A stretch of DNA of 64,000 bases, from contig OZ024741.1 of assembly GCA_964016885.1 (NCBI GenBank), positions 344,348,001-344,412,000 of the forward strand. Direction: 5' to 3'. The notes below the pieces were generated by a model, which saw nothing but the letters and a program-made list of their open reading frames with translations, was not told where the DNA came from and ran no database searches. Source of the DNA: Eledone cirrhosa (taxonomy: Eukaryota). Both the position numbers and the translations under genes were made by a program. This document shows positions 19,195-58,445 of this stretch, piece after piece. Within the stretch, counting starts at the first letter, position 1. Every line of letters starts with the position of its first letter.

Positions 19195-19203
<9 letters not shown>
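19060..19203. repeat. Near-perfect ~68-bp palindrome, family P3 (same arm at 45598-45668 and 45805-45876)
   Basis: atttattaaaataacagattaaag...cgggatctt / aagatcccg...ctttaatctgttattttaataaat. Confidence 0.9.
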
Positions 19204-19227
<24 letters not shown>

Positions 19228-21563: not shown

Positions 21564-21716
21564 ATAATTACATTCGTAAACCAACCCAAATCAAACAGTG
21601 AGTGAGTGTGTCCTATTATTATTTCTGGCAATATTATAACAATATGATCCTCCCCAAATATAACAATATATATATATGTATATGTATATAGAGGAGCCAG
21701 AACCAAATGGGAAAAA

Positions 21717-22379
21717 ATGGTAAATAATGACACAAATGGGACCTGCCCCTTGTATAGGAGCAAATTTTGGAATAGAATAGAAAGAACTAGGAACAAGGCT
21801 AATAGAATAAACTCATGGTATGATAGCAATAAATACCAGAGTGTAATGTTCATCGATACAACCCCTAGAGGTGAATTAGCTTACAAATTTAGAAGGGCCC
21901 TAGATAAACATAAACTCAATATTAAGATAGTAGAAAGACCAGGTACCTCCATAAAAACACTTATTAGCAAGACATACCCTTTTCAAAGACCTCCCTGTAT
22001 GGATAAGAAATGTATAATCTGTAAATTAAGCCCCCATATTAACTGTAAAACTAGAAATGTAGTATATAGCATAAGATGTACTGAAGGACAATGTAGAGAT
22101 AAAAATATAGTGTACATAGGTGAGACAGCTCGTAGTATAGGGGAACGGATAAATGAACGCTGGCGAGACCTTCAAGATAGTAAAGAATCATCTGTACTCT
22201 ACCAACATGCTAAAATAGAACATAAGGGTAAATTAAAGAACATAGAAATAAAAATAGAATCTACACACAGAAAAGACGCAATGTTTAGACAAATCACAGA
22301 GGCAATAAACATAAATGAATTACAACCAAAATTAAATAGAAAACATGAGTGGAACAGCAACATCACAACTTACAATTAA
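21717..22379 (+). CDS. 5'-truncated Penelope-like element ORF: C-terminal linker plus GIY-YIG endonuclease
   Basis: CxxxxCxxC, NVVYSIRC..C...VYIGETAR (GIY-YIG), HAKIEH, RQITEA...PKLN. Begins right after (TA)n, so the reverse transcriptase (RT) is missing. Confidence 0.85.
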   Translation: MVNNDTNGTCPLYRSKFWNRIERTRNKANRINSWYDSNKYQSVMFIDTTPRGELAYKFRRALDKHKLNIKIVERPGTSIKTLISKTYPFQRPPCMDKKCIICKLSPHINCKTRNVVYSIRCTEGQCRDKNIVYIGETARSIGERINERWRDLQDSKESSVLYQHAKIEHKGKLKNIEIKIESTHRKDAMFRQITEAININELQPKLNRKHEWNSNITTYN

Positions 22380-22580
22380 GGACAAAATGAAAACACACAC
22401 GCACATAGAACAAACAACCAACCAATAATATGTAAATAAACAAATAAATAAACGAATATGAACACACACAGACACCCGGATGTAACACATGCGCAAACTA
22501 AGCACACAACACACACACAAAACAAGATGGCGTAGGACAGAACAAAGGAGAGGCACAAAAAACAAAGAAAAGAATCCCCA

Positions 22581-22623
22581 GTCACTGAAGAGGTCACAGA
22601 ATGTGTGACGAAAGAACTTTGAC
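22581..22623 (+). ncRNA. Hammerhead ribozyme in the Penelope 3' pseudo-LTR
   Basis: gtca-CTGAAGA-g-gtcaca(gaatg)tgtgac-GAAA-gaac-TT-tgac, with one extra nucleotide before stem II; lies ~200 bp after the endonuclease stop. Confidence 0.7.
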
Positions 22624-22826
22624 AATATATAAACAACCACCTGGTAGTGGAACCAATCAACCAACCAGAAATTTATAAATTCCTAAATTTATAAATTTAT
22701 TATAAAAAATTGGAGTGATAGCATCTGGTGCGTGTGTTTCTTATTGGCAACATGACCCTCCCAAAGTATAACAATATCGGTTTCAACACACGTTTTCAGA
22801 TAAAGAATCTTGCTAAACAAATTCAG

Positions 22827-28360: not shown

Positions 28361-28642
28361 ATACTTGGCGAGGGTCATATTTGTGTAATATTGCCAGAAT
28401 TAATAACAGAACACACTCACTGTTTGGTTGGTTTTCGCTTTTCGCTTCTGTGTCTTTTATATCGGTAATCTGTTGCCATTGACTGACCAACGGTCAAAAA
28501 TAATACAGATACTATATAGACACAAACACATATATATAGTTTATCAAAGTTCTTTCGTTGCACATCTGCAACATCGTCACTGGAGCTATTGTTTCCTCCC
28601 GTTGCATTGTATTTTCTACGCAAAACTGATTCATCGCCGTTA
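28355..28642 (-). mobile_element. Penelope-type pseudo-LTR fragment with a degenerate hammerhead (28543-28584)
   Basis: GTGACGA-t-gttgca(gatg)tgcaac-GAAAgaacTT is homologous to the 22581 motif. The 3' end atgaccctc..caagtataacaat is shared with ~21595-21668, 22745-22777 and 49015-49082. Confidence 0.6.
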
Positions 28643-32600: not shown

Positions 32601-33098
32601 TTGGTGAGGCTCTTGCACCATCCTCCCTATCCGCTAATCCCACACAGTCCCAGCGTGCATCTAAGATCCCGTTCAAGTCGCCCACTAACACTAAAGAGCG
32701 GGACGTTCCAAGAAAGGTCTCCAGACGCCGGAAGACATCAGGCCGCCCTGCTCCTGTTGGGGCATAGACGGCCACTAGCCTGAAAGCTTGCCCGTCTCCG
32801 CTGGTCACATCCAGCACCACCAACTTACCCCCTGGGTCCAGGAAGATGGCCCGTATGGCGAGATCCAAACCTCTCCGAAAAAGCACAGCAACTCCTCCCC
32901 CGATTCAGGACGGCTGGGAGATGCGTACACATCGTAGCCGCCGAAGATCGGTGCGAAGGCCCGTACTTCGGAGATTCTGGTCTCGCTGATGGCCACTACA
33001 TCTATGTTTAGTGACCTGAGGTCGTTGAGCAGGTGGCCCTGCTTCCATGACGACCCCAAGCCACGCGCATTTATGCTGCCTATTCTGAGTGAGGTCAT
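29682..33098 (-). pseudogene. Tx1-like ORF2 (APE endonuclease + reverse transcriptase), frameshifted
   Basis: SINARGL, AISET, VYAP, YLDRVF, YTDH, GYWKLN, KAFDRVDH, VRQGCPLS, YADD, ESVLHALVQC, split over several frames. Confidence 0.9.
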
Positions 33099-33132
33099 GT
33101 TGAAATGGAGTGGAAAAGATGGGAAAGACCAC

Positions 33133-35307
33133 TTACCGTACTTTTCGTAGAGGAAGGATGGTTTCTCCATCCCTTTTCACTTGATCGTCTGGTGAAGGGA
33201 CCGTTGAATCGTCCCTTCGGATGGTCGTCGGCTCTTCTATGAGTGTGTCCGAATATACTCTCCGGTTGAGAGTCCCTCCTGGGTCTCTGAAATCACCAAC
33301 TGCGTTGGGGAATTTCGTATTAATGTTTGTGTATTGTTTCTGTGCTATCCTTACCAGTCTTATGTTCGTTGGTGTTTTGATTGGTGCTGGTATTATGTAG
33401 TCGTGCTGTGAAATGTCTGTGTGTTCAATTATGTAAGTCATTAGTTTCTTGTTGTGTGTATTTATTGCCGTGCATTTGTTTTTCTGGGGGTGGGGGTGTG
33501 GTTCTGCTATTTTCTTGTCGTTGTTGCTGGGTGTGTGTGTATTGTTATTGTGTTTGCGATGTTGGTGCTTGTGGTGGTGGTGTTGAAGTTGTTGTTGTTG
33601 GCGGTGGGGTTGTCGCCGGTGGTGATGGTGGTGCTAGTGTGGGTGGTGATGGTGTTGGTGGTGTTGCTGCTGTGAGTCTCTTTGCAGTATCCTTTACCCT
33701 TTTTTCATTTCTTTCTTCCCTTTTCGAAGGCGACGATGCGCTGCTTCTAAGTTTGTGACTTCTAGCGACGTTTTGCCATCTCTCTCCCACCTCAAACTCC
33801 ATGTCTGATTCTGTGTGGTCGGGGAGGGGTACCAGCTCCACTCTTTCACTTGTTGTTGTTGGTGATGTTTGCAGTGGAGTCTCTGTTGGAGCTGCAGTTG
33901 GTATTACTGTTGTTGTTGTTAATACTTCCACTGCTGCTGCTGTTCTTGATTTCCGTGGCGTGGGTATGGGTGCCACGGACCTATCGTTCCTGGTTGCCGC
34001 TTGTCCTGTTGCTGGTAGAAGTGGAGCCGGTTTCGGAAGGAGGGGGGTTTTCTCCTTTCTCAGGGTCTTATCGTTGCAGAAGGCCCTGAGGTGAGTCTTC
34101 GATCCACAGCGAAAGCATTTCGGGCGTTTGCCCTCAACACTTATGGGCAGTTGAGTGCCGTTATCGAAGTCTATCACATCCGGGATAGCTTCGATGCACT
34201 CCTGGTTGGTTTGGATTAACATCTCAATGGAGGTGCCGACCCAATCTTCTCTTACTCTTTTCTGTACTTGCAGTACAGTTGTTTTGTCCTCGATTCCGAC
34301 GAGGACAGACGCGGCCAGCCAAGAAGGGGCCATCCTGGGGGGGGGGGGGGGGGGGGGGGCGTGGGTCAGTTTGACCCTCACAGTTTTTTGTTCGCAGTAG
34401 GAGGGCACCAACACCATTTCCTCGCTCCATAAGGTCACTAAGGATTGAGCCTTTGCCTCCTGGGGTGTGGCAAAAAGCACGTCTACGGTGGCATATTTCT
34501 TACCTCGGGTGATATGCGTTTTCCGCTGCCACACAGACCCTAAGGCTTTTTTGTATTTGAGCCTCTGTGGCTCTTTCAACCCTACGGGATTTTGTGCTTA
34601 CTGTACGGTACGTGACCGTACAGTGCTGTTGGGTTTCGAAAAATGTTTGCGGCTGCCTTGCAGATTGCTCGGTGTCCGGTTTTCGTCACCATCTTCTTCG
34701 CTTCCTGTAATTCCTCATTTGTTATGAGGATGGTTTCTAGGTTCTTTGCGATACCTGCAAACGAAATTGGTTTTTCTTTGCTGCTGTTGTTGTTGGTGTT
34801 GTTGTCGTCAGAGCTGCTGTTACTTTTGTTGTTGCTGCAGGTACTACGACTACTGCCGCCGCCGCTGTTGCTGTGGTTGTTGTTGTTGCTGCTGCTGCTG
34901 CTGTTGTTGTTGTTATTGCTGCTAATGTTGATTTTGTTGCGGCTGCTACTGTTGTTTTCCTTGTCACTGTTGCTGCTGCTGCTGCTGTTATTACGGCTGC
35001 TACTGCTATTATTCATGACGTCAGACGAATGAAATGGGTTTTCGTATTTACCGCACACCTTTTTCGTCGTTGTCGTCGTCGGGGAGAAATGTTCCATGCT
35101 TTGCACGTGATTTTGGAAACTAATTTTCTTTACTGGCTTCGCTTGCGAAAGAGAAGGAGGGAGAGAGACACATTTAGAGAAGGGAGGGAGAGAGACAATC
35201 TTCTCTCTGCTGTAGGAAGAAGAAGACGGAATGAGTGGGAGTGACTTGTGAAAATTCTTTTTCGTAGCCATGTTTTTTTTTTGGTTTAAAATAAATATTG
35301 GGCACAA
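33133..35307 (-). pseudogene. Tx1-like ORF1 (nucleic-acid binding, CCHC), frameshifted
   Basis: CFRCGSKTHLRAFC zinc knuckle; Ser/Asn- and Thr/Pro-rich linkers; three ORF pieces. Confidence 0.8.
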
Positions 35308-35487
35308 AATCCCAATAAGCGATTATTTAACCCCGAAGGGCCAAATAACGGGCAAAAAGACCCCTCTCACGAGGAGGAGGGTGTTTTTGTCTACAATTTG
35401 GTTAAAGTTTTAAACAATTTACAATTATTATAGCGGTCAAAATTTACATTACCTTACAGAGCCGAGCCTCCGTCAACCATGGCATTC

Positions 35488-35535
<48 letters not shown>

Positions 35536-35723
35536 TGTTTCTACTTTTGGCACAAGACCAGCAATTTCCCAGTGCATTACTGGTACTTTATTTTATCGAA
35601 CCCATAAGGATGAAAGGCAAAGTTAACATCGGTGGGATTTGAACTCAGAATAAGAAGGGTCGTAACTCTATACGTCAAAGCATAGCATCCGACCCTCTAC
35701 CGATACTGCCAATCCACCGCCCT
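35536..35723 (-). mobile_element. Family A SINE between the two Tx1 copies, flanked by (AAT)n
   Basis: A box tggcagtatcgg, B box gagttcaaatcc. Confidence 0.8.
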
Positions 35724-35784
<61 letters not shown>

Positions 35785-36027
35785 TTTTCTTTATTAACCA
35801 CAAGGGTTTACATAAAGTAGACATTAAGGACAGTACAGGACAATACAGGACGGTACAAATGGGCATTTCTGGGTGTAAAAAAAACAGAGGTTGAAATAAA
35901 ATAACAAAGAAAAATTCCCCAATAGGGGGAAGACTTCCGAGGGACATTTGTGGAGAAAGCCCATTAAAAGACCACAGTGGCCCTGACCACCAGGGCAAGT
36001 GCCCTCTCCCAGTTTTCCACCTTTAAT

Positions 36028-39000
36028 TTACAGACACATACTCAGAGAAGGCCCATTCATTCGGGCCATACTTGCTTCTCTCACCCATCTTTCAACAAAA
36101 TGCTGGGAAGAGAGCACTTCCCTCTCTACCCTGATTTTCCTTTTCAAATGAAATTTGAAAAAGTTAATCAGGGCATCACCGAAGAGGTAAGTGCTCGTCT
36201 TCAGCCATTTCAAACGTGTCCACCATACTATCTCTTTCGCCATGGCCACCAGACAGATAAAAACTGCCTGCCCTTTCCGGCTAAAGGAAGGGGGCGGGGC
36301 AATTCTCACGATGGACTCAGCTGATAGCCGGATCCGTCCTACACGTGACAGCAGGTGTTCGACATAAACCCACAAGTCAGCAATGCTCGGACACTGGACG
36401 AGTGCGTGCAGGACGGTTTCGTCGCACTGCGCGCATCTCGGACATGCCCGGCTGACGGCACCTCCATGCCTGTAGAGTTTATCCCGAACTGGCAAAGCTC
36501 CTCGGTAGCACTGCCAGGCCAGGGATTTCTGGAAGTTGTCCATAGGCCCCGGCCCGAAAGTCCTTCCGAAGAGATTGGCTAGTTGATTTTCGTCGACGCC
36601 TAGAGTTTCTCCAAGTACGTCGTCGCTCTTCCCCTCCACTAATCCCCTATAGAACGCCAAGGTGGAGTTTCCACCGATCACATTGCCCGATTGGTCGAGG
36701 GCTGTGAGCGCCTGAAGACATTCCAGTCTCCAAGCGCCCCCTCTCGGTCTTCGCTTGACCCAGGACTGCAGCTCCGTCAAGGAGACGAGCTGGGGAAAAA
36801 CGTGTCTAGCAAACGGCGACCACACCTGATCACCGTCGAGGAAGAGGTGCAGATGTCGTAGCCTGAGCGCGTGTCTGCGCATCATCAGCCACGGCATGTC
36901 CAGCCCTCCACGTAGCGGGTGTTGACAGCAGATGGACCGCCTGACCATCGGAGCGCGTCCCTTCCACAAGAAGCGAAAGAGCAAACGCTCCAGCGCAGTC
37001 AGGCGGGGCTTAGGACAAGGTACGACGGTCAGGCGGTAGTAGATGACGGATGCGATGTACGCATTCGCCACCTCCGCTCGACCTTTCAGGGATAGCTTCC
37101 TCTCGGCCCATTTCTGGGTGAGAGAAGCCACCCTGCTCGTCACCTCGTCCCAGTTTTTGTCCGTCTGGAGGTCTGGACCGAACCAGACCCCTAGCAATTT
37201 AACCGGTCCGTCCGTCCAGCGCCCGACGACGCTGTTGGACGGCATGGACCTGCCTCTCCAGGTGCCGAGCTGCAGGCCCACTGACTTTTCCTGGTTGATC
37301 ATTGTTCCTGTCACCGCTTCGTATTCTCTTAGTGTAGTGCCGATCGCCTCGATGTGTTTGGCGTTCGACACCACTACGGTGACATCGTCGGCATATGTTG
37401 ACACGGATCTTCCGCATCCTAGTTCGCGCGGGACCCCCCTCAACGTCTCCAGTTTGTGCAGTAATGGCTCGAGAGTCAATACGTACAATAGGGACGAGAG
37501 GGGACATCCTTGGCGGACCGAGCGCATGATGTTGAACGGTTCCGAAAGGTGACCGTTCACTCTCACTACAGAGCAGATGTCGCTGTGCATGGCAGCGATC
37601 CAGCCTCTGAAGACGGGCCCAAAGCCAGCCGCCCTCAGGACTGCCGCTAGGTAACGGTGGTCGACCCTATCGAAGGCTTTCGACTGATCTAAATTGATCA
37701 AAGACCCACCCGTGCCAGGTTCCCTAGCTACCCTCTCTACGATGTATCGCATGAGGTGTAGGTTGTCGTGGATGGATCTGTCGGGAATGGCGCATGTCTG
37801 TGCCTCTCCCACCAGACCACCAACGACAAACGCCAACCTCTTTGCTAGCACCTTCGCCAAAATCTTGAACTCTGTGTTTAGCAGAGTTATGGCATTTGTA
37901 CGTAAAGTTCATAGGGCAGACCATCCAAACCAGGCGATTTACCCCTTGTGCAACTAGTCATTGCATCCCGTACTTCAGCGGTTGTTATCGGCTTTTCGCA
38001 ACACTCCGCATCAGTGGCCGAAAGCCGCGGCAGTCCGTCGAGGTAGACACTAAAGTCCATCCCTCGATCCGGCCCGCCACTGCCCCCGAACAGTTGAGTG
38101 AAGTGTCGCTGAAAAGCTTCACACATTTGCCCGGGATCGAGTAGCATGCGCCCGTCGTGGTCCACCAAAGACCGGATCGTGGCTTTGTTGCCACGACGCG
38201 CCTCCGCCACTCGGGCCCATTGAACGGCTTTCGTCCCCTCGTGTCTGAGAGCACGCACCCTAGCTCTGACAACGCAGCCTTCGTGCATTGCATTGAAGAA
38301 TTGGTCAAGGGCCAATTTCGCAGCAAGTACGTCGGTCGCGATGCCTTTGCTAAGCGCCTCATCTAATTTTCTAACTAATTCTCCCTCTGCTCTATTTTTC
38401 TCTATTGCTAAAGTCTTACTAAACCTAATGGACTCTATTCTAATTGCTCTTTTCAGGACAAACCACAACTTGTTGTTGACGATGGCCTCCGTCAACGCCC
38501 GCTTAACTAGTTCGCTAATCCGGTCTCTGTAGGCCTTGCGCGCTGGTAAGGACGCGTTTAGCTTCCAGTAGCCGGGTCCTCGTCCGTGAAGCCTATCTAA
38601 GTCAAGCACACAGATCACGAATTTGTGGTCCGTGTAGCTGACTATCTTGAATTGTGGACAGCCTATGCTAGACCTATCTATTTCCCTACAAAATACTCTA
38701 TCTAGATATGATCTGGATGACCATATGCGATTTGTCCAAGTCCACATTGGTACATTCGGGAAATCCATTCGGTACCTGTCAGACAGTTCAAAACGTCTGA
38801 GCAGGTTGGTGAGACTCTTGCACCCTCCTTCCCTATCCACTAATCCCACACAATCCCAGCGTGCATCTAAGATCCCGTTCCAGTCGCCCACTAACACTAA
38901 AGAGCGGGACGTTCCAAGAAAGGTCTCCAGACGCCGGAAGAAATCAGGCCGCCCTGCTCCTGTCGGGGCATAGACGGCCACTAGCCTGAAAGCTTGCCCG

Positions 39001-39305
39001 TCTCCGCTGGTCACGTCCAGCACCACCAACTTACCTTCTGGATCCAGGAAGATGGCCCGTATGGCAAGATCCAAACCTCTCCGAAAAAGCACAGCAACTC
39101 CTCCCCCCGATCCCGGACGGCTGGGAGATGCGTACACATCGTAGCCGCCGAAGATCGGTGCGAAAGCCTGTGCTTCGGAGATTCTGGTCTCGCTGATGGC
39201 CACTACATCTATGTTTAGTGACCTGAGGTCGTTGAGCAGGTGGCCCTGCTTCCATGACGACCCCAAGCCACGCGCATTTATGCTGCCTATTCTGAGTGAG
39301 GTCAT
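36028..39305 (-). pseudogene. Tx1-like ORF2 with a 142-bp internal deletion at ~37890
   Basis: ORFs 37887-39305 (APE) and 36028-37860 (RT). The segment matching copy 1 31547-31688 is missing, with a TGG microhomology at the junction. Confidence 0.9.
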
Positions 39306-39339
39306 ATTGAAAAGGAGTGGAAAAGATGGGAAAGACCAC

Positions 39340-41249
39340 TTACCTTACTTCTCGTAGGGGAAGGACGGTCTTTCCATCCTTTTCACTGCTTGTGGCCTCC
39401 TCAGGAAGGATGTCCTTATAAATCCTCCTGGAGAGTGCTTGTCGGAAGTCTCCAATGTCTTTGGGGAATTTTTGTTTTAGTGTCATGTACGTTTTCTGTG
39501 TGATGCGAGTGATTTGTATGTGTGGAGGTGGTGTGAATATTTGGGTTGTTGTGTAGTCTTTTTCTGTGATGCTGGTGTTGTGTTGGATGTAGTGTAATAA
39601 TTGCTTGTTGTTCAAATTTAATGCTGTGTAGTGTGTATCGTTTTGGTTGTTTTGTTCTGTTTGCGTTTGTTGTGGGTTTGTTTCTGTTTCGCATTTTGGT
39701 GACTTTTGTGGTGTAGGTGATGGTCGTGTTGGGGTTAATGATGGTGATGGTGTTGGTGTTTGGGTTGATGGGGTTGGTGATGCTGGTGTGGATGGTGGTA
39801 TATCTGTCCTAACTTTTTTGTTTCTTAGTTTATTTGTTTCCCTCTGTATTTTGTTTTTGGAGGGGGAAGGAAGAGTATTTTTTCTTTTTTGGTTTCTTTT
39901 TTTTTTCCGGATATCGTTTCCCACTCCTCGTCGTCACAATCTGTCTCCAGTTGTGATAGGCCGGGGAGTGGAAAATCCTCCACAGGCGTTAGTTTTGGTT
40001 GTGGCGTGGTGGATGGTGTAGACGCTGGTGCTAGTTCTGAAGCGTTGGGTGGTGGTGGTGTTGGTTTTGCTGGTGGTGGTGGTGGTGTTGGTTTTTCTAC
40101 TGTTGCTGGGGTTGTTGCTGTTATAGTTGCTTCTGTTGTTGCTGCTACAGTTGTTGCTGCCATCTCTGCTACTGGTGGTGTTGATGGTTGTGTCACTGGG
40201 GTGGGTAGGAGAGGTGGCCTCAACCTTTTAGCCTGAGGGCAGAAAGCCCTTAGGTGGGTTCCTTCACCACAAACGACACACCTAGGTCTTCTGCCCTCGA
40301 CAATTACCGTGAGGTGGCTGCCGTCAGTGAGGTCTATTACCTCTGGGATCTCCTCAATGCTTTTTTGGTCCGCTTGGATCAGGAGCTCCATCCCAGATCC
40401 GGACCAGTTCTCCTGCTTTTCTTTTGCTATTGCTATTATTTTCGGGTTGGCTTCGATGCCGGCGAGGACGGCCGCTATTAGCCAGGGAATTTCGATGGCC
40501 GGTGGAACGTGGGTCACCCTGATCTTTACGAGTCTATGGCCACAATAGCTTAGGACGAGTGTGAAGTCGTCACTTCTTAATGGGGCCATGGAGTGTTCTC
40601 TAGCCTCCTCTGGTGTTTCAAAGAACACGTCCACGGTTCCATACTTTTGCCCACGTCTGATGTGGGTTTTTCTTGCCCACACATGTCCCAAAGCTTTTTG
40701 GATTTGGGACTCGGATGCCCGTTCCACTCGGCGCGATTTTACATTTATTGTTCTATACGACACGGTGCATAGGCGCCGATGCTCCATTTTATTAGGTGGG
40801 GGGGTGAGGCTGACCCTGTACCCATCTTTCTTTACCATTTGTTTGGCATTTTCTAAATCCTCCTGAGTTCCCGTAAATGCTTCGAACTGTTTTGCTACGA
40901 TGGCGAAACTGGGGGGGTTTTTTATAATGTCATTGTTGTTGTTGTTGCTATCGTTAATATTAATTTTAGTTTCAGTTGTGGTGGTGGTGACGTCAGTCGT
41001 CTTTGGTGGGGAAGAGTCCATTTTGCTTGATTTCATTTCGACATCACGAGTTAATTTATTTTTTTCTTCTTTTGTTTCTGTTGTCGCGGTGGTGGTGGGG
41101 GTGGTGGTTGTCGCGGTGGTGGTGGTGGTGGTGGAGGCTTTAACACCTGCAGTCATTGGTAATGGCGGGAAATGAATGTCTGCCTGAGACAAATTTAAAA
41201 TATTGCTACTGCTTATATTTTTTTTTTGTGTTGGCAAACGTAGTAACAT
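39340..41249 (-). pseudogene. Tx1-like ORF1 of copy 2 (one frameshift near the A-run at ~39900)
   Basis: CVVCGEGTHLRAFC knuckle; homologous to copy 1 ORF1 but divergent. Confidence 0.8.
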
Positions 41250-41537
41250 TTACAATGGTGGTGTCGGTGTGAGGTGTTATTTTGTGAGGAAGACTTTCAG
41301 CTGCTTCGTGCAGAGGTGAATTAGCCATTTTTTTTTCAAAGAAATTTTTTGATAATAATAAAAGTTAAAATTTTGGGCACAAGGCCCCAATCTTTTTGGG
41401 TGTCCTTTTCGGAAAACAATGTATGTGTGCTTATAAACAGTTAACAATAAAATTTTCCATAAATGGCAATTTTTAACAAACGGAAATAACAAACCTTTGC
41501 GGAGCTCACGATGATACGATTTACTACGTAGGTCGCC

Positions 41538-41606: not shown

Positions 41607-44523
41607 CTTAGTGGTAGATGAATTGAACAATGATAGTGGGAGACCTATGAACCTAAGATTTGTAGACATGAAAAAGTTAAAAGAAACAACAGCTAAGGTA
41701 AACAAAGTCATCCCATACCTTGAGCCTTCACCAGTGCAACAATATCCTCAAAGCAACAGCAAATACGGTGAGGAAACTACTTGGTATAAAAGCGAGAGGA
41801 AACAACAGACAAGAAAGAGCAAAGCCTTGGTGGAAGAAATGACTGAGTGGTGAAATCAGGGAAATGAGAAATGACATTGGAAAGCTTCAGTCCCTACTGA
41901 ATGGGGCACTAAAAAACATAGACACTAAAAATAGACTGGAAATAAAGTACAAAACTAGGAGGAAAAAGCTAAATATTATCATAGAGGAACTGAAGCAACG
42001 CATTGTAGCAAAAAGTGCAAAAATCAGGCGATACGAGAACAGAGTCAGCCAGTATAGACAGAACCGCATGTTCGACAACAACCAGAAGATGCTGTTTGGA
42101 CAGCTTGAAGGGAAAGAAAGAGGCAACGACTTGATCCCTGAGGCGGAACAAACTAAAACATTCTGGAGAGGAATGTGGGATCAGGATGTTAAACATAATG
42201 ACCAGGCAGTGTGGATTGAGACAGTACAGAAGGAGATCAGTGAACAGGCACGCCAACAAACTGATTTGAGTATCACAGTTGAAACTCTTAAGGGGCAGGC
42301 CAAAAAACTAACCAACTGGAAATCACCTGGCCCAGATGGTGTGCAGGGGTATTGGATTAAAAACATAACATCCCTCCACCCGAAACTGACAACCATGTTC
42401 AATGACTGCTTGATGTCAGGTGAGGTACCAGAGTGGTTGACAAAAGGTACCACAGTTCTGATAATGAAAGACCGAATCAAGGGTAATGATGTTACCAACT
42501 ATAGACCTATCACATGTCTGTCCGTAATGTGGAAACTGTTGACAAGCATTATGTCTGAGGAAATCTACCATCACCTCCACACAAACAACTTGTTACCGGA
42601 CGAACAGAAAGGATGCCGAAAGAAGTCACGTGGTACAAAGGACCAGTTACTTATTGATAAGATGGTAATGAGGAATTGCAAGAGGAGACACACTGGTCTT
42701 GCCATGAGATGGATAGACTACAAAAAGGCATTTGGCATGGTGCCTCATTCTTGGATTACCAAAAGCCTGGAGATATTCAAGGTGGCAGATAACATCAGGC
42801 AGTTGTTGGGCAAAAGTATGAAGTCCTGAGAAACAGAGTTAACATCAACTGGAGAATCCTTGGGAAGCGTGAAGATCAAGAGAGGTATCTTCCAGGGAGA
42901 TAGTCTGTCCCCTCTGTTGTTTGTCCTTGCGCTGATGCCCCTGACCAGTGTACTGCGAAAAGTGAGAGCAGGATACAGGGTGGGAAAGGGAGGGCTTACC
43001 ATCAATCACCTCCTCTTCATGGACGATCTTAAGCTCTTCGGGAAGAGTGAGAAGGAGTTGGATGTGCTTGTTGACACTGTCCGTATTTTCAGCAATGATA
43101 TATGTATGCAATTTGGTATTAGTAAGTGTGGAGTCATTGTGATGAGGAGGGGTAAGTTGAGCAGAAGTAACGGAATCCAGATACCAACAGGTGAGATGAC
43201 AAAAGAAATTGACTCTAAAGAAGTATTTGGGCGTTCTGGAGGCTGATGACATCAAGAACAAAGAAATGAAGGAATTGATAAGAACTGAATACCTTCGGAG
43301 AGTAAGGAGCGTATTAAAGTCACATCTGAACAGTAGGAATGCCATAAGTGCAGTAAATTCCCGAGCTGTGTCTATTATTAGGTACAGTGCGGGAATTCTG
43401 AGATGGAATGTTGCTGAACAAAAAGAAATGGATAGGAAGACTAGGAAGCTATTGACTATCTACAATATGTTCCACAAGAGGAGTGATGTCGATAGACTCT
43501 ACTTAAGGTGATCTGAGGGTGGAAGAGGTCTTATCAGCATAGAGGACTGTGTTCAGATGGAGAAAAACAACCTACACAAATGCGTGACTGATGGTAAGGA
43601 GCCAATGCTCAGAGCTGTACTGAAGGAGGGGACAATAGGCCAGGGGATGTTCAAGGAGGAAATAACATCAAGGAGAAAGAGCAGCCTCAAGGAAACATAC
43701 CTTCATAGTACCTTCTTTGAGAAAACTGAATTTAGAGATCCACAGACATGGAACTGGTTGAAAAGAGGAGACCTTAAAAAGGCTACAGAAGGAATGTTAA
43801 TGGCTGCGCAGGAGCATGCCCTCAAAACGAAGTGGTTGAAACACCACATTTACAAGGAGGAAGCTAGCCCACTGTGCAGGATCTGTGGAGAGAGAGAGGA
43901 GACTGTGGCTCACATTGTATCCGAGTGTAAACACCTAGCCCAGACTCACTATAAGGGCTGGAGACATGATGTGATGGGCAGGGTGATCCACTGGCACCAA
44001 TGCAAAGTAAACAATTTACCACATTCTGAGAAGTGGTATGAGCATAGGCCAGAGGCGGTGATAGAAAACGATCAGGTGAAGGTGCTGTGGGATTTTAGGA
44101 TACAGACGGACAAGAAACTGGAACACAATAGACCTGACCTGGTGGTTTTGGACAAAGAAAAAAGATCGTGCCTGATTGTGGATGTGGCCTGCCCATTCGA
44201 CACGAGAGTGCAAGATAAGGAGAGGGAGAAAATTAACCGATACCAGGACTTAAAGTGTGGGGGGGAAAGGATTTGGAACTGCCATGAAGTCAAAGTGATC
44301 CCGATTGTTATAGGCGCACTAGGGACTATCTCAAAAAGTTTCCAGGGATGGTTAAAGAAAATTGGTCCCTTCACGCTTTTTGGAATGCTTCAAAAGGCAT
44401 GCTTGCTGGGAACAGCAAGAACCCTCCGTTACGTCCTGAATATCTGAGGCTGCAGGTAGTGGCTTGATATTCATCTCAACAAACTTTCCAGTTAACTAAC
44501 ATAAATGACTGAGACTCAAAGAG
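41606..44523 (+). mobile_element. 5'-truncated R4/Dong-like non-LTR retrotransposon (RT + restriction-like endonuclease), decayed
   Basis: WKSPGPDG, NYRPITCL, WIDYKKAF, GIFQGDSLSP, HLLFMDD, CRICGEREETVAHIVSEC, RHD, HNRPDLV..DVACP; stops and frameshifts; bounded by (TAA)n, the known Dong target. Confidence 0.88.
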
Positions 44524-44847: not shown

Positions 44848-45281
44848 TAAATGGTATAGCTGAAGTCGTAGACTAAATTCTAACTAGGAAACCGGATGAA
44901 GAGTTAAGAATAAAGTAAATAAAATACAATACAGTTTTGGTTGACGTACGTCTCCGAACATTTGTGTATTTACATGTAGGTATGTGTGTGCGCTTATATA
45001 TATATACGTATTTATTTATTTATATACGTTTATTTAATTATTTATTTATTTGTATACACGCACACACACACACATATTTATATGTGCGTGGTTTTGTATA
45101 CCTATGGCAAGTGTTTTCGCGTATGCTTGTGTATGTACGTATTTGCTTGCGTGTATGTATTTATTTAATTTCTATTACCTCTGTATTGTATTTTATTTAC
45201 TTTATTCTTAACTCTGAAGCGGAGATTCATTCGGTTTCCTAGTTAGAATTTTAGTCCACGACTTCAGCTATACCATTTACG
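44846..45281. repeat. Inverted repeat (~90-100-bp arms) around ~245 bp of low-complexity DNA; MITE-like
   Basis: cgtaaatggtatagctgaagtcgt..aatacaatacag / ctgtattgtatt..acgacttcagctataccatttacg. Confidence 0.7.
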
Positions 45282-45681
45282 TGATTTTGTCTTTGCGTGC
45301 AATTGTTCTCCACGCTCCACATATGACGTATTATCTTCGTTTTTTCGTTCATTGCCAGAGAACGTCTCTATGAACCACCTAAGAGAACATTAGTCTACGT
45401 CTTCTTTTATACCATAAACGTGGTTCTGTCTTTGCGTGTAATTGTTTTTCACCGCTCCTATTAATGACGTATTATATTCGTTTTTTCCCGTTCTTTGCCA
45501 GGGAACGTTTCCACGAACCAAAGTATCATCTTCCTGTCTTCCTCCGGTTGCAACGTTTTTTGAAATATCCACTTTTGCGTTTACAGATTGACTTTGTTAG
45601 TTTCAGAAGATCCCGTTAAGGGTGAAAGCACCGATTCTTTGCTTAAACTTTAATCTGTTATTTTAATATATATATATATAA

Positions 45682-45799
<118 letters not shown>

Positions 45800-46115
45800 T
45801 TATTTATTAAAATAACAGATTAAAGTTTAAGCAAAGAATCGCTGCTTTCACCCTTAACTGGATCTTCTGAAACTATATATATATTACTATATATATATAT
45901 ATCCCAAATTGTAGAAATCCTATAACGAAACGGCCGTCTGGAAGGAAAGAGATATTTATTTAATAATGTCTCATATAATACAACCAGCTATCCACGAAAT
46001 ACTGATTAGTTAGCACCCCAAACACTAATTTGGGAAAATACTTAGGTATATCCTAATGTTTGTTGAGTGAGATGGAGTTGGTCAGAGTATCGCTTAAGGC
46101 TTTTTCTGTTTATGT

Positions 46116-49001: not shown

Positions 49002-49110
49002 TATACATATATATAGCGGCGATGAATCTGTTATTAATTCTGGCAATATTACACAAATATGACCCTCCCCAAGTATAACAATATATATATATATATATAT
49101 ACATATATAT

Positions 49111-49167
49111 ATGTAAGTATGCATGTATACGTACATACATATATGTATACAGACGTACAGTAGCATG

Positions 49168-49205
<38 letters not shown>

Positions 49206-49653
49206 TATATACATATGCATACAGGTACACATACATATATGCACGTATCAGTTTAGCGGCGCTTATTATAACGTCGCTTTGTTCGTTTGTAAACAAACTG
49301 AACAGCCTGAATTTATGCCATACGGTGTTAGGCAACCACGTCACCTTTTTGTTCAACACTGACACAGGAACGATGTACTAGTTTCAAGCTTGTTAGCTAT
49401 CATCAGCACCGTTTACCCATCTGCCAGATAGTTGAACGTTCGAAAGTATATACTTTCCTTATGAAAATTAACGGCTGAGCAGCCTAATTTGCATATTGAG
49501 TGAGTTAAATCGGTCAGGCATACCGAAAACGATAAATTGAAACAAAATGAAAACGAAATTTCATTTCTCACTCTTAGTATGGCACTTACTTAAATGTAAG
49601 TATGCATGTATACGTACATACATATATGTATACAGACGTACAGTAGCATGCAC

Positions 49654-49686
<33 letters not shown>

Positions 49687-51663
49687 TATATACATATGCA
49701 TACAGGTACACATACATATATGCACGTATCAGTTTAGCGGCGCTTATTATAACGTCGCTTTGTTCGTTTGTAAACAAACTGAACAGCCTGAATTTATGCC
49801 ATACGGTGTTAAGGCAACCACGTCACCTTTTTGTTCAACACTGACACAGGAACGATGTACTAGTTTCAAGCTTGTTAGCTATCATCAGCACCGTTTACCC
49901 ATCTGCCAGATAGTTGAACGTTCGAAAGTATATACTTTCCTTATGAAAATTAACGGCTGAGCAGCCTAATTTGCATATTGAGTGAGTTAAATCGGTCAGG
50001 CATACCGAAAACGATAAATTGAAACAAAATGAAAACGAAATTTCATTTCTCACTCTTAGTATGGCACTTACTTAAATGTAAGTATGCATGTATACGTACA
50101 TACATATATGTATACAGACGTACAGTAGCATGCACATATATATATATATATATATATACATATATATATACATATGCATACAGGTACACATACATATATG
50201 CACGTATCAGTTTAGCGGCGCTTATTATAACGTCGCTTTGTTCGTTTGTAAACAAACTGAACAGCCTGAATTTATGCCATACGGTGTTAAGGCAACCACG
50301 TCACCTTTTTGTTCAACACTGACACAGGAACGATGTACTAGTTTCAAGCTTGTTAGCTATCATCAGCACCGTTTACCCATCTGCCAGATAGTTGAACGTT
50401 CGAAAGTATATACTTTCCTTATGAAAATTAACGGCTGAGCAGCCTAATTTGCATATTGAGTGAGTTAAATCGGTCAGGCATACCGAAAACGATGGGTAAA
50501 CGGTGCTGATGATAGCTAACAAGCTTGAAACTAGTACATCGTTCCTGTGTCAGTGTTGAACAAAAAGGTGACGTGGTTGCCTTAACACCGTATGGCATAA
50601 ATTCAGGCTGTTCAGTTTGTTTACAAACGAACAAAGCGACGTTATAACAAGCGCCGCTAAACTGATACGTGCATATATGTATGTGTACCTGTATGCATAT
50701 GTATATATATATGTATATATATATATATATATATATGTGCATGCTACTGTACGTCTGTATACATATATGTATGTACGTATACATGCATACTTACATTTAA
50801 GTAAGTGCCATACTAAGAGTGAGAAATGAAATTTCGTTTTCATTTTGTTTCAATTTATCGTTTTCGGTATGCCTGACCGATTTAACTCACTCAATATGCA
50901 AATTAGGCTGCTCAGCCGTTAATTTTCATAAGGAAAGTATATACTTTCGAACGTTCAACTATCTGGCAGATGGGTAAACGGTGCTGATGATAGCTAACAA
51001 GCTTGAAACTAGTACATCGTTCCTGTGTCAGTGTTGAACAAAAAGGTGACGTGGTTGCCTTAACACCGTATGGCATAAATTCAGGCTGTTCAGTTTGTTT
51101 ACAAACGAACAAAGCGACGTTATAATAAGCGCCGCTAAACTGATACGTGCATATATGTATGTGTACCTGTATGCATATGTATATATATATGTATATATAT
51201 ATATATATATATATGTGCATGCTACTGTACGTCTGTATACATATATGTATGTACGTATACATGCATACTTACATTTAAGTAAGTGCCATACTAAGAGTGA
51301 GAAATGAAATTTCGTTTTCATTTTGTTAAAATTTATCGTTTTCGGTATGCCTGACCGATTTAACTCACTCAATATGCAAATTAGGCTGCTCAGCCGTTAA
51401 TTTTCATAAGGAAAGTATATACTTTCGAACGTTCAACTATCTGGCAGATGGGTAAACGGTGCTGATGATAGCTAACAAGCTTGAAACTAGTACATCGTTC
51501 CTGTGTCAGTGTTGAACAAAAAGGTGACGTGGTTGCCTTAACACCGTATGGCATAAATTCAGGCTGTTCAGTTTGTTTACAAACGAACAAAGCGACGTTA
51601 TAATAAGCGCCGCTAAACTGATACGTGCATATATGTATGTGTACCTGTATGCATATGTATATA

Positions 51664-51697
<34 letters not shown>

Positions 51698-52621
51698 CAT
51701 GCTACTGTACGTCTGTATACATATATGTATGTACGTATACATGCATACTTACATTTAAGTAAGTGCCATACTAAGAGTGAGAAATGAAATTTCGTTTTCA
51801 TTTTGTTTCAATTTATCGTTTTCGGTATGCCTGACCGATTTAACTCACTCAATATGCAAATTAGGCTGCTCAGCCGTTAATTTTCATAAGGAAAGTATAT
51901 ACTTTCGAACGTTCAACTATCTGGCAGATGGGTAAACGGTGCTGATGATAGCTAACAAGCTTGAAACTAGTACATCGTTCCTGTGTCAGTGTTGAACAAA
52001 AAGGTGACGTGGTTGCCTTAACACCGTATGGCATAAATTCAGGCTGTTCAGTTTGTTTACAAACGAACAAAGCGACGTTATAATAAGCGCCGCTAAACTG
52101 ATACGTGCATATATGTATGTGTACCTGTATGCATATGTATATATATATGTATATATATATATATATATATATGTGCATGCTACTGTACGTCTGTATACAT
52201 ATATGTATGTACGTATACATGCATACTTACATTTAAGTAAGTGCCATACTAAGAGTGAGAAATGAAATTTCGTTTTCATTTTGTTAAAATTTATCGTTTT
52301 CGGTATGCCTGACCGATTTAACTCACTCAATATGCAAATTAGGCTGCTCAGCCGTTAATTTTCATAAGGAAAGTATATACTTTCGAACGTTCAACTATCT
52401 GGCAGATGGGTAAACGGTGCTGATGATAGCTAACAAGCTTGAAACTAGTACATCGTTCCTGTGTCAGTGTTGAACAAAAAGGTGACGTGGTTGCCTTAAC
52501 ACCGTATGGCATAAATTCAGGCTGTTCAGTTTGTTTACAAACGAACAAAGCGACGTTATAATAAGCGCCGCTAAACTGATACGTGCATATATGTATGTGT
52601 ACCTGTATGCATATGTATATA

Positions 52622-52655
<34 letters not shown>

Positions 52656-53579
52656 CATGCTACTGTACGTCTGTATACATATATGTATGTACGTATACAT
52701 GCATACTTACATTTAAGTAAGTGCCATACTAAGAGTGAGAAATGAAATTTCGTTTTCATTTTGTTTCAATTTATCGTTTTCGGTATGCCTGACCGATTTA
52801 ACTCACTCAATATGCAAATTAGGCTGCTCAGCCGTTAATTTTCATAAGGAAAGTATATACTTTCGAACGTTCAACTATCTGGCAGATGGGTAAACGGTGC
52901 TGATGATAGCTAACAAGCTTGAAACTAGTACATCGTTCCTGTGTCAGTGTTGAACAAAAAGGTGACGTGGTTGCCTTAACACCGTATGGCATAAATTCAG
53001 GCTGTTCAGTTTGTTTACAAACGAACAAAGCGACGTTATAATAAGCGCCGCTAAACTGATACGTGCATATATGTATGTGTACCTGTATGCATATGTATAT
53101 ATATATGTATATATATATATATATATATATGTGCATGCTACTGTACGTCTGTATACATATATGTATGTACGTATACATGCATACTTACATTTAAGTAAGT
53201 GCCATACTAAGAGTGAGAAATGAAATTTCGTTTTCATTTTGTTTCAATTTATCGTTTTCGGTATGCCTGACCGATTTAACTCACTCAATATGCAAATTAG
53301 GCTGCTCAGCCGTTAATTTTCATAAGGAAAGTATATACTTTCGAACGTTCAACTATCTGGCAGATGGGTAAACGGTGCTGATGATAGCTAACAAGCTTGA
53401 AACTAGTACATCGTTCCTGTGTCAGTGTTGAACAAAAAGGTGACGTGGTTGCCTTAACACCGTATGGCATAAATTCAGGCTGTTCAGTTTGTTTACAAAC
53501 GAACAAAGCGACGTTATAATAAGCGCCGCTAAACTGATACGTGCATATATGTATGTGTACCTGTATGCATATGTATATA

Positions 53580-53627
<48 letters not shown>

Positions 53628-55027
53628 CATGCTACTGTACGTCTGTATACATATATGTATGTACGTATACATGCATACTTACATTTAAGTAAGTGCCATA
53701 CTAAGAGTGAGAAATGAAATTTCGTTTTCATTTTGTTTCAATTTATCGTTTTCGGTATGCCTGACCGATTTAACTCACTCAATATGCAAATTAGGCTGCT
53801 CAGCCGTTAATTTTCATAAGGAAAGTATATACTTTCGAACGTTCAACTATCTGGCAGATGGGTAAACGGTGCTGATGATAGCTAACAAGCTTGAAACTAG
53901 TACATCGTTCCTGTGTCAGTGTTGAACAAAAAGGTGACGTGGTTGCCTTAACACCGTATGGCATAAATTCAGGCTGTTCAGTTTGTTTACAAACGAACAA
54001 AGCGACGTTATAATAAGCGCCGCTAAACTGATACGTGCATATATGTATGTGTACCTGTATGCATATGTATATATATATGTATATATATATATATATATAT
54101 GTGCATGCTACTGTACGTCTGTATACATATATGTATGTACGTATACATGCATACTTACATTTAAGTAAGTGCCATACTAAGAGTGAGAAATGAAATTTCG
54201 TTTTCATTTTGTTTCAATTTATCGTTTTCGGTATGCCTGACCGATTTAACTCACTCAATATGCAAATTAGGCTGCTCAGCCGTTAATTTTCATAAGGAAA
54301 GTATATACTTTCGAACGTTCAACTATCTGGCAGATGGGTAAACGGTGCTGATGATAGCTAACAAGCTTGAAACTAGTACATCGTTCCTGTGTCAGTGTTG
54401 AACAAAAAGGTGACGTGGTTGCCTTAACACCGTATGGCATAAATTCAGGCTGTTCAGTTTGTTTACAAACGAACAAAGCGACGTTATAATAAGCGCCGCT
54501 AAACTGATACGTGCATATATGTATGTGTACCTGTATGCATATGTATATATATATGTATATATATATATATATATATATGTGCATGCTACTGTACGTCTGT
54601 ATACATATATGTATGTACGTATACATGCATACTTACATTTAAGTAAGTGCCATACTAAGAGTGAGAAATGAAATTTCGTTTTCATTTTGTTTCAATTTAT
54701 CGTTTTCGGTATGCCTGACCGATTTAACTCACTCAATATGCAAATTAGGCTGCTCAGCCGTTAATTTTCATAAGGAAAGTATATACTTTCGAACGTTCAA
54801 CTATCTGGCAGATGGGTAAACGGTGCTGATGATAGCTAACAAGCTTGAAACTAGTACATCGTTCCTGTGTCAGTGTTGAACAAAAAGGTGACGTGGTTGC
54901 CTTAACACCGTATGGCATAAATTCAGGCTGTTCAGTTTGTTTACAAACGAACAAAGCGACGTTATAATAAGCGCCGCTAAACTGATACGTGCATATATGT
55001 ATGTGTACCTGTATGCATATGTATATA

Positions 55028-55061
<34 letters not shown>

Positions 55062-55983
55062 CATGCTACTGTACGTCTGTATACATATATGTATGTACGT
55101 ATACATGCATACTTACATTTAAGTAAGTGCCATACTAAGAGTGAGAAATGAAATTTCGTTTTCATTTTGTTTCAATTTATCGTTTTCGGTATGCCTGACC
55201 GATTTAACTCACTCAATATGCAAATTAGGCTGCTCAGCCGTTAATTTTCATAAGGAAAGTATATACTTTCGAACGTTCAACTATCTGGCAGATGGGTAAA
55301 CGGTGCTGATGATAGCTAACAAGCTTGAAACTAGTACATCGTTCCTGTGTCAGTGTTGAACAAAAAGGTGACGTGGTTGCCTTAACACCGTATGGCATAA
55401 ATTCAGGCTGTTCAGTTTGTTTACAAACGAACAAAGCGACGTTATAATAAGCGCCGCTAAACTGATACGTGCATATATGTATGTGTACCTGTATGCATAT
55501 GTATATATATATGTATATATATATATATATATATGTGCATGCTACTGTACGTCTGTATACATATATGTATGTACGTATACATGCATACTTACATTTAAGT
55601 AAGTGCCATACTAAGAGTGAGAAATGAAATTTCGTTTTCATTTTGTTTCAATTTATCGTTTTCGGTATGCCTGACCGATTTAACTCACTCAATATGCAAA
55701 TTAGGCTGCTCAGCCGTTAATTTTCATAAGGAAAGTATATACTTTCGAACGTTCAACTATCTGGCAGATGGGTAAACGGTGCTGATGATAGCTAACAAGC
55801 TTGAAACTAGTACATCGTTCCTGTGTCAGTGTTGAACAAAAAGGTGACGTGGTTGCCTTAACACCGTATGGCATAAATTCAGGCTGTTCAGTTTGTTTAC
55901 AAACGAACAAAGCGACGTTATAATAAGCGCCGCTAAACTGATACGTGCATATATGTATGTGTACCTGTATGCATATGTATATA

Positions 55984-56016
<33 letters not shown>

Positions 56017-56612
56017 GTGCATGCTACTGTACGTCTGTATACATATATGTATGTACGTATACATGCATACTTACATTTAAGTAAGTGCCATACTAAGAGT
56101 GAGAAATGAAATTTCGTTTTCATTTTGTTTCAATTTATCGTTTTCGGTATGCCTGACCGATTTAACTCACTCAATATGCAAATTAGGCTGCTCAGCCGTT
56201 AATTTTCATAAGGAAAGTATATACTTTCGAACGTTCAACTATCTGGCAGATGGGTAAACGGTGCTGATGATAGCTAACAAGCTTGAAACTAGTACATCGT
56301 TCCTGTGTCAGTGTTGAACAAAAAGGTGACGTGGTTGCCTTAACACCGTATGGCATAAATTCAGGCTGTTCAGTTTGTTTACAAACGAACAAAGCGACGT
56401 TATAATAAGCGCCGCTAAACTGATACGTGCATATATGTATGTGTACCTGTATGCATATGTATATATATATGTATATATATATATATATATATGTGCATGC
56501 TACTGTACGTCTGTATACATATATGTATGTACGTATACATGCATACTTACATTTAAGTAAGTGCCATACTAAGAGTGAGAAATGAAATTTCGTTTTCATT
56601 TTGTTTCAATTT
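49111..56612. repeat. Tandem array of ~478-bp hammerhead-containing units (candidate non-LTR retrozyme): 3 units minus, 13 units plus
   Basis: Plus-strand CTGATGA cores start at 50506, 50984, 51462, 51942, 52420, 52900, 53378, 53872, 54348, 54826, 55306, 55782 and 56264 (periods 476-494). Minus-strand motifs at 49369-49413, 49851-49895 and 50329-50373. Confidence 0.95.
50499..50543 (+). ncRNA. Minimal type I hammerhead ribozyme (representative of 16 identical copies)
   Basis: aacggtg-CTGATGA-t-agct(aaca)agct-t-GAAA-ctag-TA-catcgtt: 7-bp stem I, stem II opened by U.U, stem III palindrome ACTAGT, predicted cleavage after GUA (50536). Confidence 0.9.
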
Positions 56613-56624
56613 ACATATATATAC

Positions 56625-56663
<39 letters not shown>

Positions 56664-57146
56664 CATAAATATATAAACGGGATGAAATGGAATGGACTTC
56701 CATCAGTTTCAAAAATGAGTGATCCAGTTGTTCGGTCAACAAGAACAGCCTGCTTCTGAAATTAAGGCGTAAGTGCCTACGCATTCCACAAACACAAGAA
56801 CAATTACCCTAATTCTCAGTGAGAGTCAACATGACAGTGTGTAATAAAACAGGTCCTTTGAATTTAGTTATAATCCATCCGACGGGCTTCCACACAGTTT
56901 CCCTCTACCCAGTTTCTCTCACAAAACATGGGGCCCCTTGAGTAAATGATACATGCCTAAGATGCCACGCTATAGGATTGAACCATGGAACTAACCATTC
57001 CAAAGCAAACGCCTTAATAATGCGGCCAAGGTGCATTCACGAAATATAGAAACACACACCTAAACATTCAGTCAGCTGCATATAAATGTACGTATGCATG
57101 TGTGTGTGTCTGTGCTTGTGCACTTACATACGTAGACTTGTACATA

Positions 57147-57622: not shown

Positions 57623-57651
<29 letters not shown>

Positions 57652-57653
<2 letters not shown>

Positions 57654-58445
57654 GTCATCAGCAGCTGCCCAAAGATGTCATCGCGGTACTATCTACCTAT
57701 GAGGCATGATGTACTGGCCAAAACACTGTACAATGCAGTGCGTAAAAAAGATAACCCGATAATAAACATATTAAAAGCTGCAACAATGTGGAAGACATTC
57801 ATGTACATAATAAGAAAGAGTACTGGTGGAATGTTCCAGTAAAAACCCCCAATAAAATGCAGGCATAACAGACCAGATATTATGATATGGGACAGGGAGA
57901 AGAAAGCATGCACAGTAGTGGAAATTAGCTGCCCAGCAGATGCCAATATAATATCAAAGATTAGTGAAAAGGAGAATATTTATGCAGAACTGGTGAGAAA
58001 TCTGCAGATACTCCACCCTGATTACATCTTCAGATTTATGCCTGTGATTATTGGGGCACTGGGGTATGTTAGTAACTGCCTCAATACAAATCTTAAGAAG
58101 CTGGGCTTCACAGGAATAGAAAGAACACAAATAGTTAGGAAATTACAAGTACAATCCATTAATAGAACAGTAAAAATATGTAAAACATTCCAAATATTTT
58201 GCATCTAATAATTGCATATACACATGTACAGATACAAAGCATATACACATGCACACATACAACTCAAAACATACACATCCACACATACAATAACATCCAT
58301 ATCTACACATGCATGCATGCAGACATACATACATAATTACCTAGTTGATGTTGTGTAAATTCCAATGAGAGAGTCTTGTGTCTATGTTAGAAACCGACTC
58401 TCTCTCTCTATTGGTAAAACTTTGTGAAATTATAAACCCAGAAGA
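57652..58445 (+). mobile_element. 3' fragment of an RLE-type (R4/CRE-like) non-LTR retrotransposon in (CATA)n
   Basis: VISSC...RHDVLAK, HNRPDIMIWD...VEISCP, KENIY, PVIIGALG; frameshifted. Confidence 0.8.

Follow-up and report, generated by a model that had tools for sequence, protein, structure and literature searches.

The DNA analysed here is a window of 64,000 nt from the genome of Eledone cirrhosa (GCA_964016885.1, contig OZ024741.1, positions 344,348,001 to 344,412,000, forward strand), which contains a candidate retrozyme, i.e. repeated units that each carry a hammerhead ribozyme. All positions without a locus name are those of this window. Sixteen exact hammerhead cores were found, the number reported in an earlier note made from the sequence alone, with 13 on the plus strand (50506-56264) and 3 on the minus strand (49376, 49858 and 50336). 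Alignment of the copies gave a unit length of 476-494 nt. The note had described a plain tandem array; Tandem Repeats Finder and alignment instead revealed two back-to-back arms, one minus and one plus, joined 5′-to-5′. Unit positions are numbered from the first base 3′ of the GUA site (u1 = 50537), and each arm ended at a fixed site, named A or B. The features of the locus, including a fragment of a Penelope-like element (PLE), are as follows.

49111-50493, minus strand: A arm of 2.9 units, whose 5′ start is at u321 and whose 3′ end meets (TA)n at fixed site A (u260).
50491-56613, plus strand: B arm of 12.8 units, whose 5′ start is at u433 and whose 3′ end meets (TA)n at fixed site B (u321).
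50491-50493, no strand: 5′-to-5′ junction of the arms, with 3 nt of microhomology, from the alignment.
50499-50543, plus strand: first plus-strand type I hammerhead, with 12 further copies up to 56301.
Between 50536 and 50537, plus strand: predicted cleavage site of this first hammerhead (7-bp stem I, core, U.U plus 4-bp stem II, ACUAGU stem III).
50329-50373, minus strand: first minus-strand hammerhead, with two others whose cores lie at 49858 and 49376.
50693-50744, plus strand: TA-rich tract inside one unit, 50-68 nt long across the 16 copies.
51015-52930, plus strand: two identical two-unit blocks (478 + 480 nt) sharing a 2-nt variant.
56554-56613, plus strand: terminal "tail" of ~60 nt, which spans the interval from site A to site B and is found on this end of the insertion only.
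49083-49110, no strand: left (TA)n target remnant, with 26 nt in common with the right flank.
56614-56676, no strand: right (TA)n target remnant.
49016-49082, plus strand: 3′ end fragment of an autonomous PLE family unrelated to the retrozyme, lying outside it.

The units were nearly identical, as first described: the TA-rich tract was the source of nearly all length variation and, outside it, the copies differed at just four places, namely a single substitution, a 1-nt deletion and the 2-nt variant in two units. This variant occurs twice genome-wide, both times at this locus, in the blocks 51015-51972 and 51973-52930; therefore, one block was duplicated, either locally or in the assembly. The insertion target was the (TA)n tail of the PLE fragment, and the 26 nt common to both flanks do not represent a clean target-site duplication, which is uncallable in (TA)n. 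Like non-LTR (long terminal repeat) retrozymes, the unit is short (478 nt), with a GC content of 0.35, below 45%, and self-paired (fold z = -9.1, to which the TA tract contributes in part). Of the self-complementary segments noted previously, the 16-bp palindrome was recovered, at 15 places. The lack of coding capacity was recovered as well: in two units examined for this (52500-53400), the longest open reading frame (ORF) starting with ATG did not exceed 141 aa, and most ORFs cross the TA tract. No LTR-like layout was seen in the unit, in a search that left out the primer-binding motifs (PBS, PPT).

Each hammerhead consists of a CUGAUGA and GAAA core with a GUA site, a 7-bp stem I (one G.U) with a probable extension past an internal loop, and a stem III reduced to the palindrome ACUAGU. 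This anatomy had been read correctly, although the motif had been called both complete and minimal. Stem II is in fact formed by 4 bp stacked on a U.U where the G10.1-C11.1 pair is expected, which had been overlooked, and the helix III nucleotides and the extended stem I are retained. The U.U was present in all 29 loci that were ascertained by their tail rather than by their ribozyme. Within a monomer, helix III would be closed by a loop of 2 nt at most and hence be unstable, whereas ACUAGU forms a self-duplex of -4.8 kcal/mol, so the predicted ribozyme would belong to the dimer-acting class. A search against Rfam returned zero matches at gathering thresholds, the best match being weak (HH9, 18.5 of 52 bits, E 0.057).

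The core of the ribozyme was conserved. Among the 29 tail-picked loci, core positions except N7 showed at most two deviants each; differences between subfamilies concerned N7, a single base of loop II and the region of stem I. In 14 haplotypes, hand-chosen out of 69 (9 of the commonest and 5 informative ones), the core was invariant, apart from a variable N7, and CUGANGA, GAAA, NUH and stems I and II were all present; loop II varied too. Two pairs changed on both sides, in few independent events, and one stem I pair was seen as G.U, A-U and U.G. This covariation supports the predicted fold without proving it, the events being few.

To describe the family, copies were counted by pattern search in the 3.0-Gb genome. 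The exact 37-nt core was found 10,333 times, or 24,001 times when older variants were allowed (control, 0), and a 26-mer from the A-B interval 22,355 times; 50 separate short loci lay within the first 70 Mb of one contig. The dispersed arrays in (TA)n that the earlier note had proposed to look for are thus found genome-wide, while the hammerhead-model match it had also proposed stayed below threshold. The loci retrieved were 50 consecutive ones of the first listing, 40 selected by tail only and 20 chosen for long arrays, making 111 stretches with the window. As alignments to older subfamilies end early, end A was scored at u244-261 and end B at u306-324.

A script identified 79 divergent arm pairs in 77 of the 111 stretches, together with 54 arms without a partner. 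The pairs combined one A and one B end in 61 cases out of 79, and never two A or two B ends; the other 18 pairs associated B with an unclassified end (12), A with an unclassified end (3), or two unclassified ends (3). Both ends, located about 60 nt apart in the unit, run into (TA)n. Most arms contained 0-2 unit junctions, with up to 15 in a single arm, and read through the cleavage site 217 times. The 118 5′ truncations were scattered: 4 of them fell no further than 5 nt from the cleavage site, versus 3.3 expected. Arm-arm junctions mostly showed an overlap of 0-6 nt. Satellite DNA, for which a few long head-to-tail blocks with arbitrary ends are expected, was rejected given the many separate short loci and their fixed ends. 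Among four public sequencing runs, one contained the family deeply and with variants; the other three yielded 1-6 short or shallow family contigs, and no evidence of spread to other organisms.

These data bear on the idea that one or two units were expanded and folded back during assembly. The copy number of the window array is the one given by the assembly, and its duplicated block may have arisen during assembly. However, the same two-ended architecture was found at 61 independent loci, TA lengths are unit-specific, and a separate public run covers the family and its variants in depth, making such an artefact extremely improbable.

A second hammerhead repeat, of 310 nt, was observed at L034:6034-8402 and L136:4221-5001. 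Its ribozyme is of the same design, with a non-canonical stem II base, a 4-nt loop and the hexamer palindrome ACGCGT; it also forms an inverted arm and has two ends, 26 nt apart, in (TA)n, whose motifs are similar to those of A and B. L031, L061 and L088 contained more distant relatives.

The architecture of the family recalls that of PLEs, whose insertions, in the passages of Craig et al. 2021 (10.1101/2021.04.23.441226) that describe them, comprise partial tandems and an inverted 5′-truncated copy, carry a tail at one of their ends and often lie in (TA)n. The retrozyme likewise exhibited a tail on one end, an inverted 5′-truncated copy, random 5′ truncation, an AT-rich or (TA)n target and no clear target-site duplication. 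In vitro, AT-rich DNA is nicked on its two strands, and each strand extended, by the PAc protein of the anole PLE Poseidon (Frangieh et al. 2024, PMC11167929), and reverse transcription by this protein starts at two internal RNA sites, the spacing of which is the tail (PMC11167929). Given this tail and the extension of each strand by PAc, sites A and B are best read as putative reverse-transcription start sites, one per target strand. The locus would then need two cDNAs, opposite target strands and two template sites, and a single rolled cDNA would be insufficient. L1-type twin priming was also considered, as the A arm of the window starts where the B arm ends; it was dismissed because this continuity was seen in only 1 of the 61 A-B loci, namely the window, and because both 3′ ends are fixed. 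A PLE-type insertion involving both target strands is therefore the reading we hold very probable, and the retrozyme identity and PLE mobilisation that were first proposed agree with a dispersed family with fixed A and B ends and inverted arms.

The same pairing was seen in an autonomous PLE of this genome with reverse transcriptase (RT) and GIY-YIG domains, where all 9 two-armed loci out of the 23 examined were of the A-B type. The two ends of this PLE, which encodes a 784-aa protein, were about 44 nt apart; its 150 listed copies were 96-100% identical in the C-terminal region, many with the full 784-aa ORF. This PLE (L199-L201) is very young, with an upstream ORF followed by the 784-aa RT/GIY-YIG ORF, and a full-length tandem was observed in L199. 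Three partner candidates were compared with the unit, i.e. the PLE family at 21648-22780, a Hydra-like family and the 784-aa family, none of which shared alignable sequence with it. The comparison covered the PLE families met in the window and fetched loci rather than a full genome catalogue. End motifs of the unit and of candidate families looked loosely alike. Clade labels (Neptune-like, Hydra-like) reflect a visual comparison of motifs with those in Craig et al. rather than a tree.

We also observed that two of the longest arrays (16 and 19 units) lie in the (TA)n tail of one same other PLE family (window 49016-49110 and L080:2700-2770). PLE-derived elements nested in one another's tails were frequent among the fetched loci.

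With respect to the template, arms of the same locus were a median of 0.86% apart, versus 5.3% between loci, and the within-locus distance was the lower one in 24 of 25 cases; both arms of a locus would thus derive from one variant. Young arrays were uniform even in the unstable TA tract, with a unit length that differed between loci (11 x 472, 5 x 459, 5 x 466 and 6 x 476 nt over both arms), and arrays of 5-12 units exhibited identical TA tracts and 0-3 single differences. Variants were surveyed in 22 arrays with at least 4 segments, after exclusion of 8 stretches with several insertions or cut ends. Private variants were fixed in every unit of 5 of these 22 arrays, over both arms in 3 of them. 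Uniform arrays and fixed private variants together require that, at some step, a single monomer give rise to a multimer, and arrays were probably born long from a single monomer variant.

The L160 array (L160:1175-3750) may record this step. All five of its junctions lack the 7 nt immediately 5′ of the scissile bond, a loss that destroys the ribozyme. Of 267 copies surveyed, 261 had a junction of unchanged length, and L160 accounted for five of the exceptions. Genome-wide, among 100 listed deletion alleles of the 31-nt region out of 118, L160 was the only one repeated within an array; among 100 listed insertions out of 115, two were repeated within arrays, both in stem or loop II. Deletions present in a single copy could be placed with an edge near the cleavage site in about 14 of 96 loci (by eye), roughly as expected by chance. 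The L160 array would be explained by a monomer that was cut, trimmed, sealed and then copied five times, in what is a single case. Separately, a 4-nt stem II duplication was fixed in three consecutive units at G000:C4:315615732-315616742 and recurred at C7:82727719; therefore, this variant was transmitted.

Later expansion of short PLE-type insertions by unequal crossing-over, as in satellites, is the route of Li et al. 2026 (10.64898/2026.07.22.740005), in which tandems are ascribed, as a suggestion and in the part of the text concerned, to local amplification. The two-unit duplication of the window and the variants shared within an arm in L034 and L176 indicate that local duplication, or an assembly effect, does occur. 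Near-identical arrays of 5-12 units nevertheless leave little time for repeated crossovers, and both arms are often multimeric (3+13, 4+15, 4+4 and 6+3 junctions), so that we regard this route as very improbable. Only slightly less so is a cleaved linear monomer as template, where in every round the RT, on reaching the 5′ end, jumps to the 3′ end of this monomer or of a different one. In vivo cleavage, which it requires, is suggested by the conserved core and L160, and jumps between monomers could yield mixed arrays; on the other hand, truncations were not in excess at the cleavage site, junction length was constant apart from L160, and an identical 7-nt loss five times running fits a sealed template better than five jumps.

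A more serious alternative, although still an unlikely one, retains the PLE machinery and the two starts but takes as template a linear multimer transcribed from a parent array and left uncleaved, with the ribozyme of little weight for insertion. It predicts read-through of the cleavage site equally well. In addition, uncleaved RNA was the main substrate of PAc in vitro and no reads ended at the ribozyme site (PMC11167929), and minority variants were common to both arms in L052, L080 and L177, a pattern that a monomer circle does not predict and that suggests, for some events, either gene conversion or templates that were oligomeric. Yet, with most arms at 0-2 junctions, linear copying alone would shorten arrays at each generation, and variants fixed in all units demand a monomer step. 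Moreover, the L080 variant was found in no other multi-unit pattern among 36 matches, bar one opposite-strand pair, and no parent array for the 2-nt variant of the window was found in a genome-wide search of this assembly. L160 and the conserved core would also be left unexplained.

Taken together, we favour, with some confidence, a young non-autonomous non-LTR retrozyme inserted in one event by the RT-endonuclease of a PLE, and consider a covalent circle to be a rather likely usual template. That the insertion was young and copied over several units from one monomer variant, as the earlier note held, agrees with the uniform arrays and L160; its single rolled cDNA does not stand, and its ~478-nt circle is retained as an inferred template. 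The full reading, in which a single circle is engaged by a PLE-type enzyme at two set sites, one per target strand, both cDNAs roll and arrays are born whole, has about even chances of being right. It would include tens of thousands of such records in this genome, among them a mis-ligated circle (L160), and at least one sister family, of 310 nt, with the same design. Several results, in addition to the PAc substrate and the minority variants shared by both arms, weigh against the favoured explanation. The distance across arms was no greater than that to the nearest other locus in just 12 of 25 cases, variants present in a subset of units occurred in 6 of the 22 long arrays, and L160 stands alone. 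The weak U.U base of stem II adds to this, as does the observation, in the part of Li et al. 2026 on Xenopus retrozymes, that 1 of 9 dimers cleaved and 8 did not. Finally, no hammerhead was matched by pattern search inside the 784-aa PLE, and no sequence alignable between the unit and an autonomous PLE was found in the ~1 Mb of fetched loci or the PLE families seen.

According to this circle-based reading, an array would be transcribed, and hammerheads would pair through ACUAGU and cut after GUA, a host ligase then closing the ~470-nt monomer, as known retrozymes and L160 suggest. A PLE protein, presumed from the identical architecture, would nick both (TA)n strands and extend each nick on the RNA, from A and from B, in line with the observed ends and their pairing. 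Each cDNA would circle the template for 0 to 15 units before a random stop, matching the junction counts and scattered truncations, and the cDNA ends would be joined, mostly through the 0-6 nt of microhomology seen between arms, to give divergent arms. TA slippage and occasional block duplication would follow.

Other elements were observed in the window. Two consecutive and largely open copies of a long interspersed nuclear element (LINE), with an AP-type endonuclease and an RT, occupy 29682-41250 on the minus strand; we take them to be L1/Tx1-like. Non-LTR RT elements, presumably R4/Dong-like, whose C-terminal part has zinc-binding and restriction-like endonuclease motifs, were located at 41843-44447 and ~57640-58210 (both plus strand). 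The 3′ part of a PLE at 21648-22780 (plus strand) encodes a GIY-YIG-type endonuclease and has its own hammerhead-like motif at 22585; the family is large, with ORFs near 1,000 aa. Hydra-like PLE ends, truncated and partly inverted, with a variant hammerhead, were present at 44934-45875 and 19059-19227, and hammerhead-like motifs of other PLE-derived families at 1438 and 28380-28640, many further types being seen in the fetched loci. Finally, 11741-17270 is a 5.5-kb (GGT)n-derived minisatellite with a strong G skew and periods of 9, 18 and 36 bp.

The main interest of the family lies in its thousands of insertions, which form a record of how a retrozyme moves. From DNA alone, they indicate that the enzyme is PLE-type and that priming occurs by the target, on both strands and at two internal sites. 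They also offer partial evidence on rolling on a circle versus later amplification, and genomic support for a so far hypothetical single-step copying of such repeats, probably from an RNA circle. Since the template is short and non-coding and the genome also contains a young autonomous PLE whose ORFs are intact, the matter is open to direct biochemical testing; if the circle is indeed the template, the tandem-and-inversion step of the PLE cycle would become testable on a 470-nt substrate.

The unit resembles metazoan non-LTR retrozymes in its short, non-coding, AT-rich tandem units with one type I hammerhead each, its thousands of copies, its self-paired monomer and the presence of PLEs in the same genome. 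It may represent a new family of this known class, with a consensus perhaps already deposited under another name. Unit lengths are given as 170-400 nt in the relevant part of Cervera and de la Peña 2020 (PMC7229834) and as 51-972 bp, with no mollusc sampled, in that of Li et al. 2026, so that a 478-nt unit, above the former range but inside the latter, is not unusually long, contrary to the first description. Neither of these two texts, in the parts covering metazoan retrozymes, mentions inverted arms, two fixed ends or a tail. We found no published report of tails, inversions or paired ends in retrozyme arrays, nor of cephalopod retrozymes, in a search without Repbase, Dfam and most subscription papers. 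In the sections concerned, PMC7229834, Li et al. 2026 and a 2020 review (PMC7761336) name PLEs as likely partners and leave the priming mode open. Cervera 2014, in the portions available, proposed more-than-unit copying of circles and noted that, among truncated PLEs, hammerheads occur in closely spaced pairs on opposite strands. The link published in these partial sources consists of co-occurrence and pseudo-LTR (pLTR) similarity; here it consists of an insertion footprint in DNA evidence alone, and no pLTR similarity was found.

As to the ribozyme, the passages on axolotl in PMC7229834 describe HHR_Amex1, with a palindromic tetraloop capping its one-pair helix III, and HHR_Amex2, active with a U.U at the base of helix II, both of which cleave better as dimers. 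The unit shares its weak helix III with the former and its U.U with the latter, but unites both weak features in one predicted ribozyme, while most invertebrate retrozymes covered by the same passages have a stable helix III.

Compared with PLEs, non-autonomous elements of the Chlamys type in green algae (e.g. MRC1) resemble their autonomous partner at the 3′ end, unlike the unit, and most Chlamys PLEs lack hammerheads, according to the part of Craig et al. 2021 devoted to them. The retrozyme shares with PAc and other PLEs two internal start sites (putative in the retrozyme), a one-end tail, an inverted 5′-truncated copy, partial tandems and (TA)n targets. It differs from PAc in having no ORF, a longer tail (~60 nt versus 30-40 nt) and insertions of up to 19 units. 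Moreover, PAc start sites are alike on both strands in vitro, whereas the retrozyme follows a strict one-A-one-B rule, which is also found in an autonomous PLE and constrains models of the PLE insertion complex.

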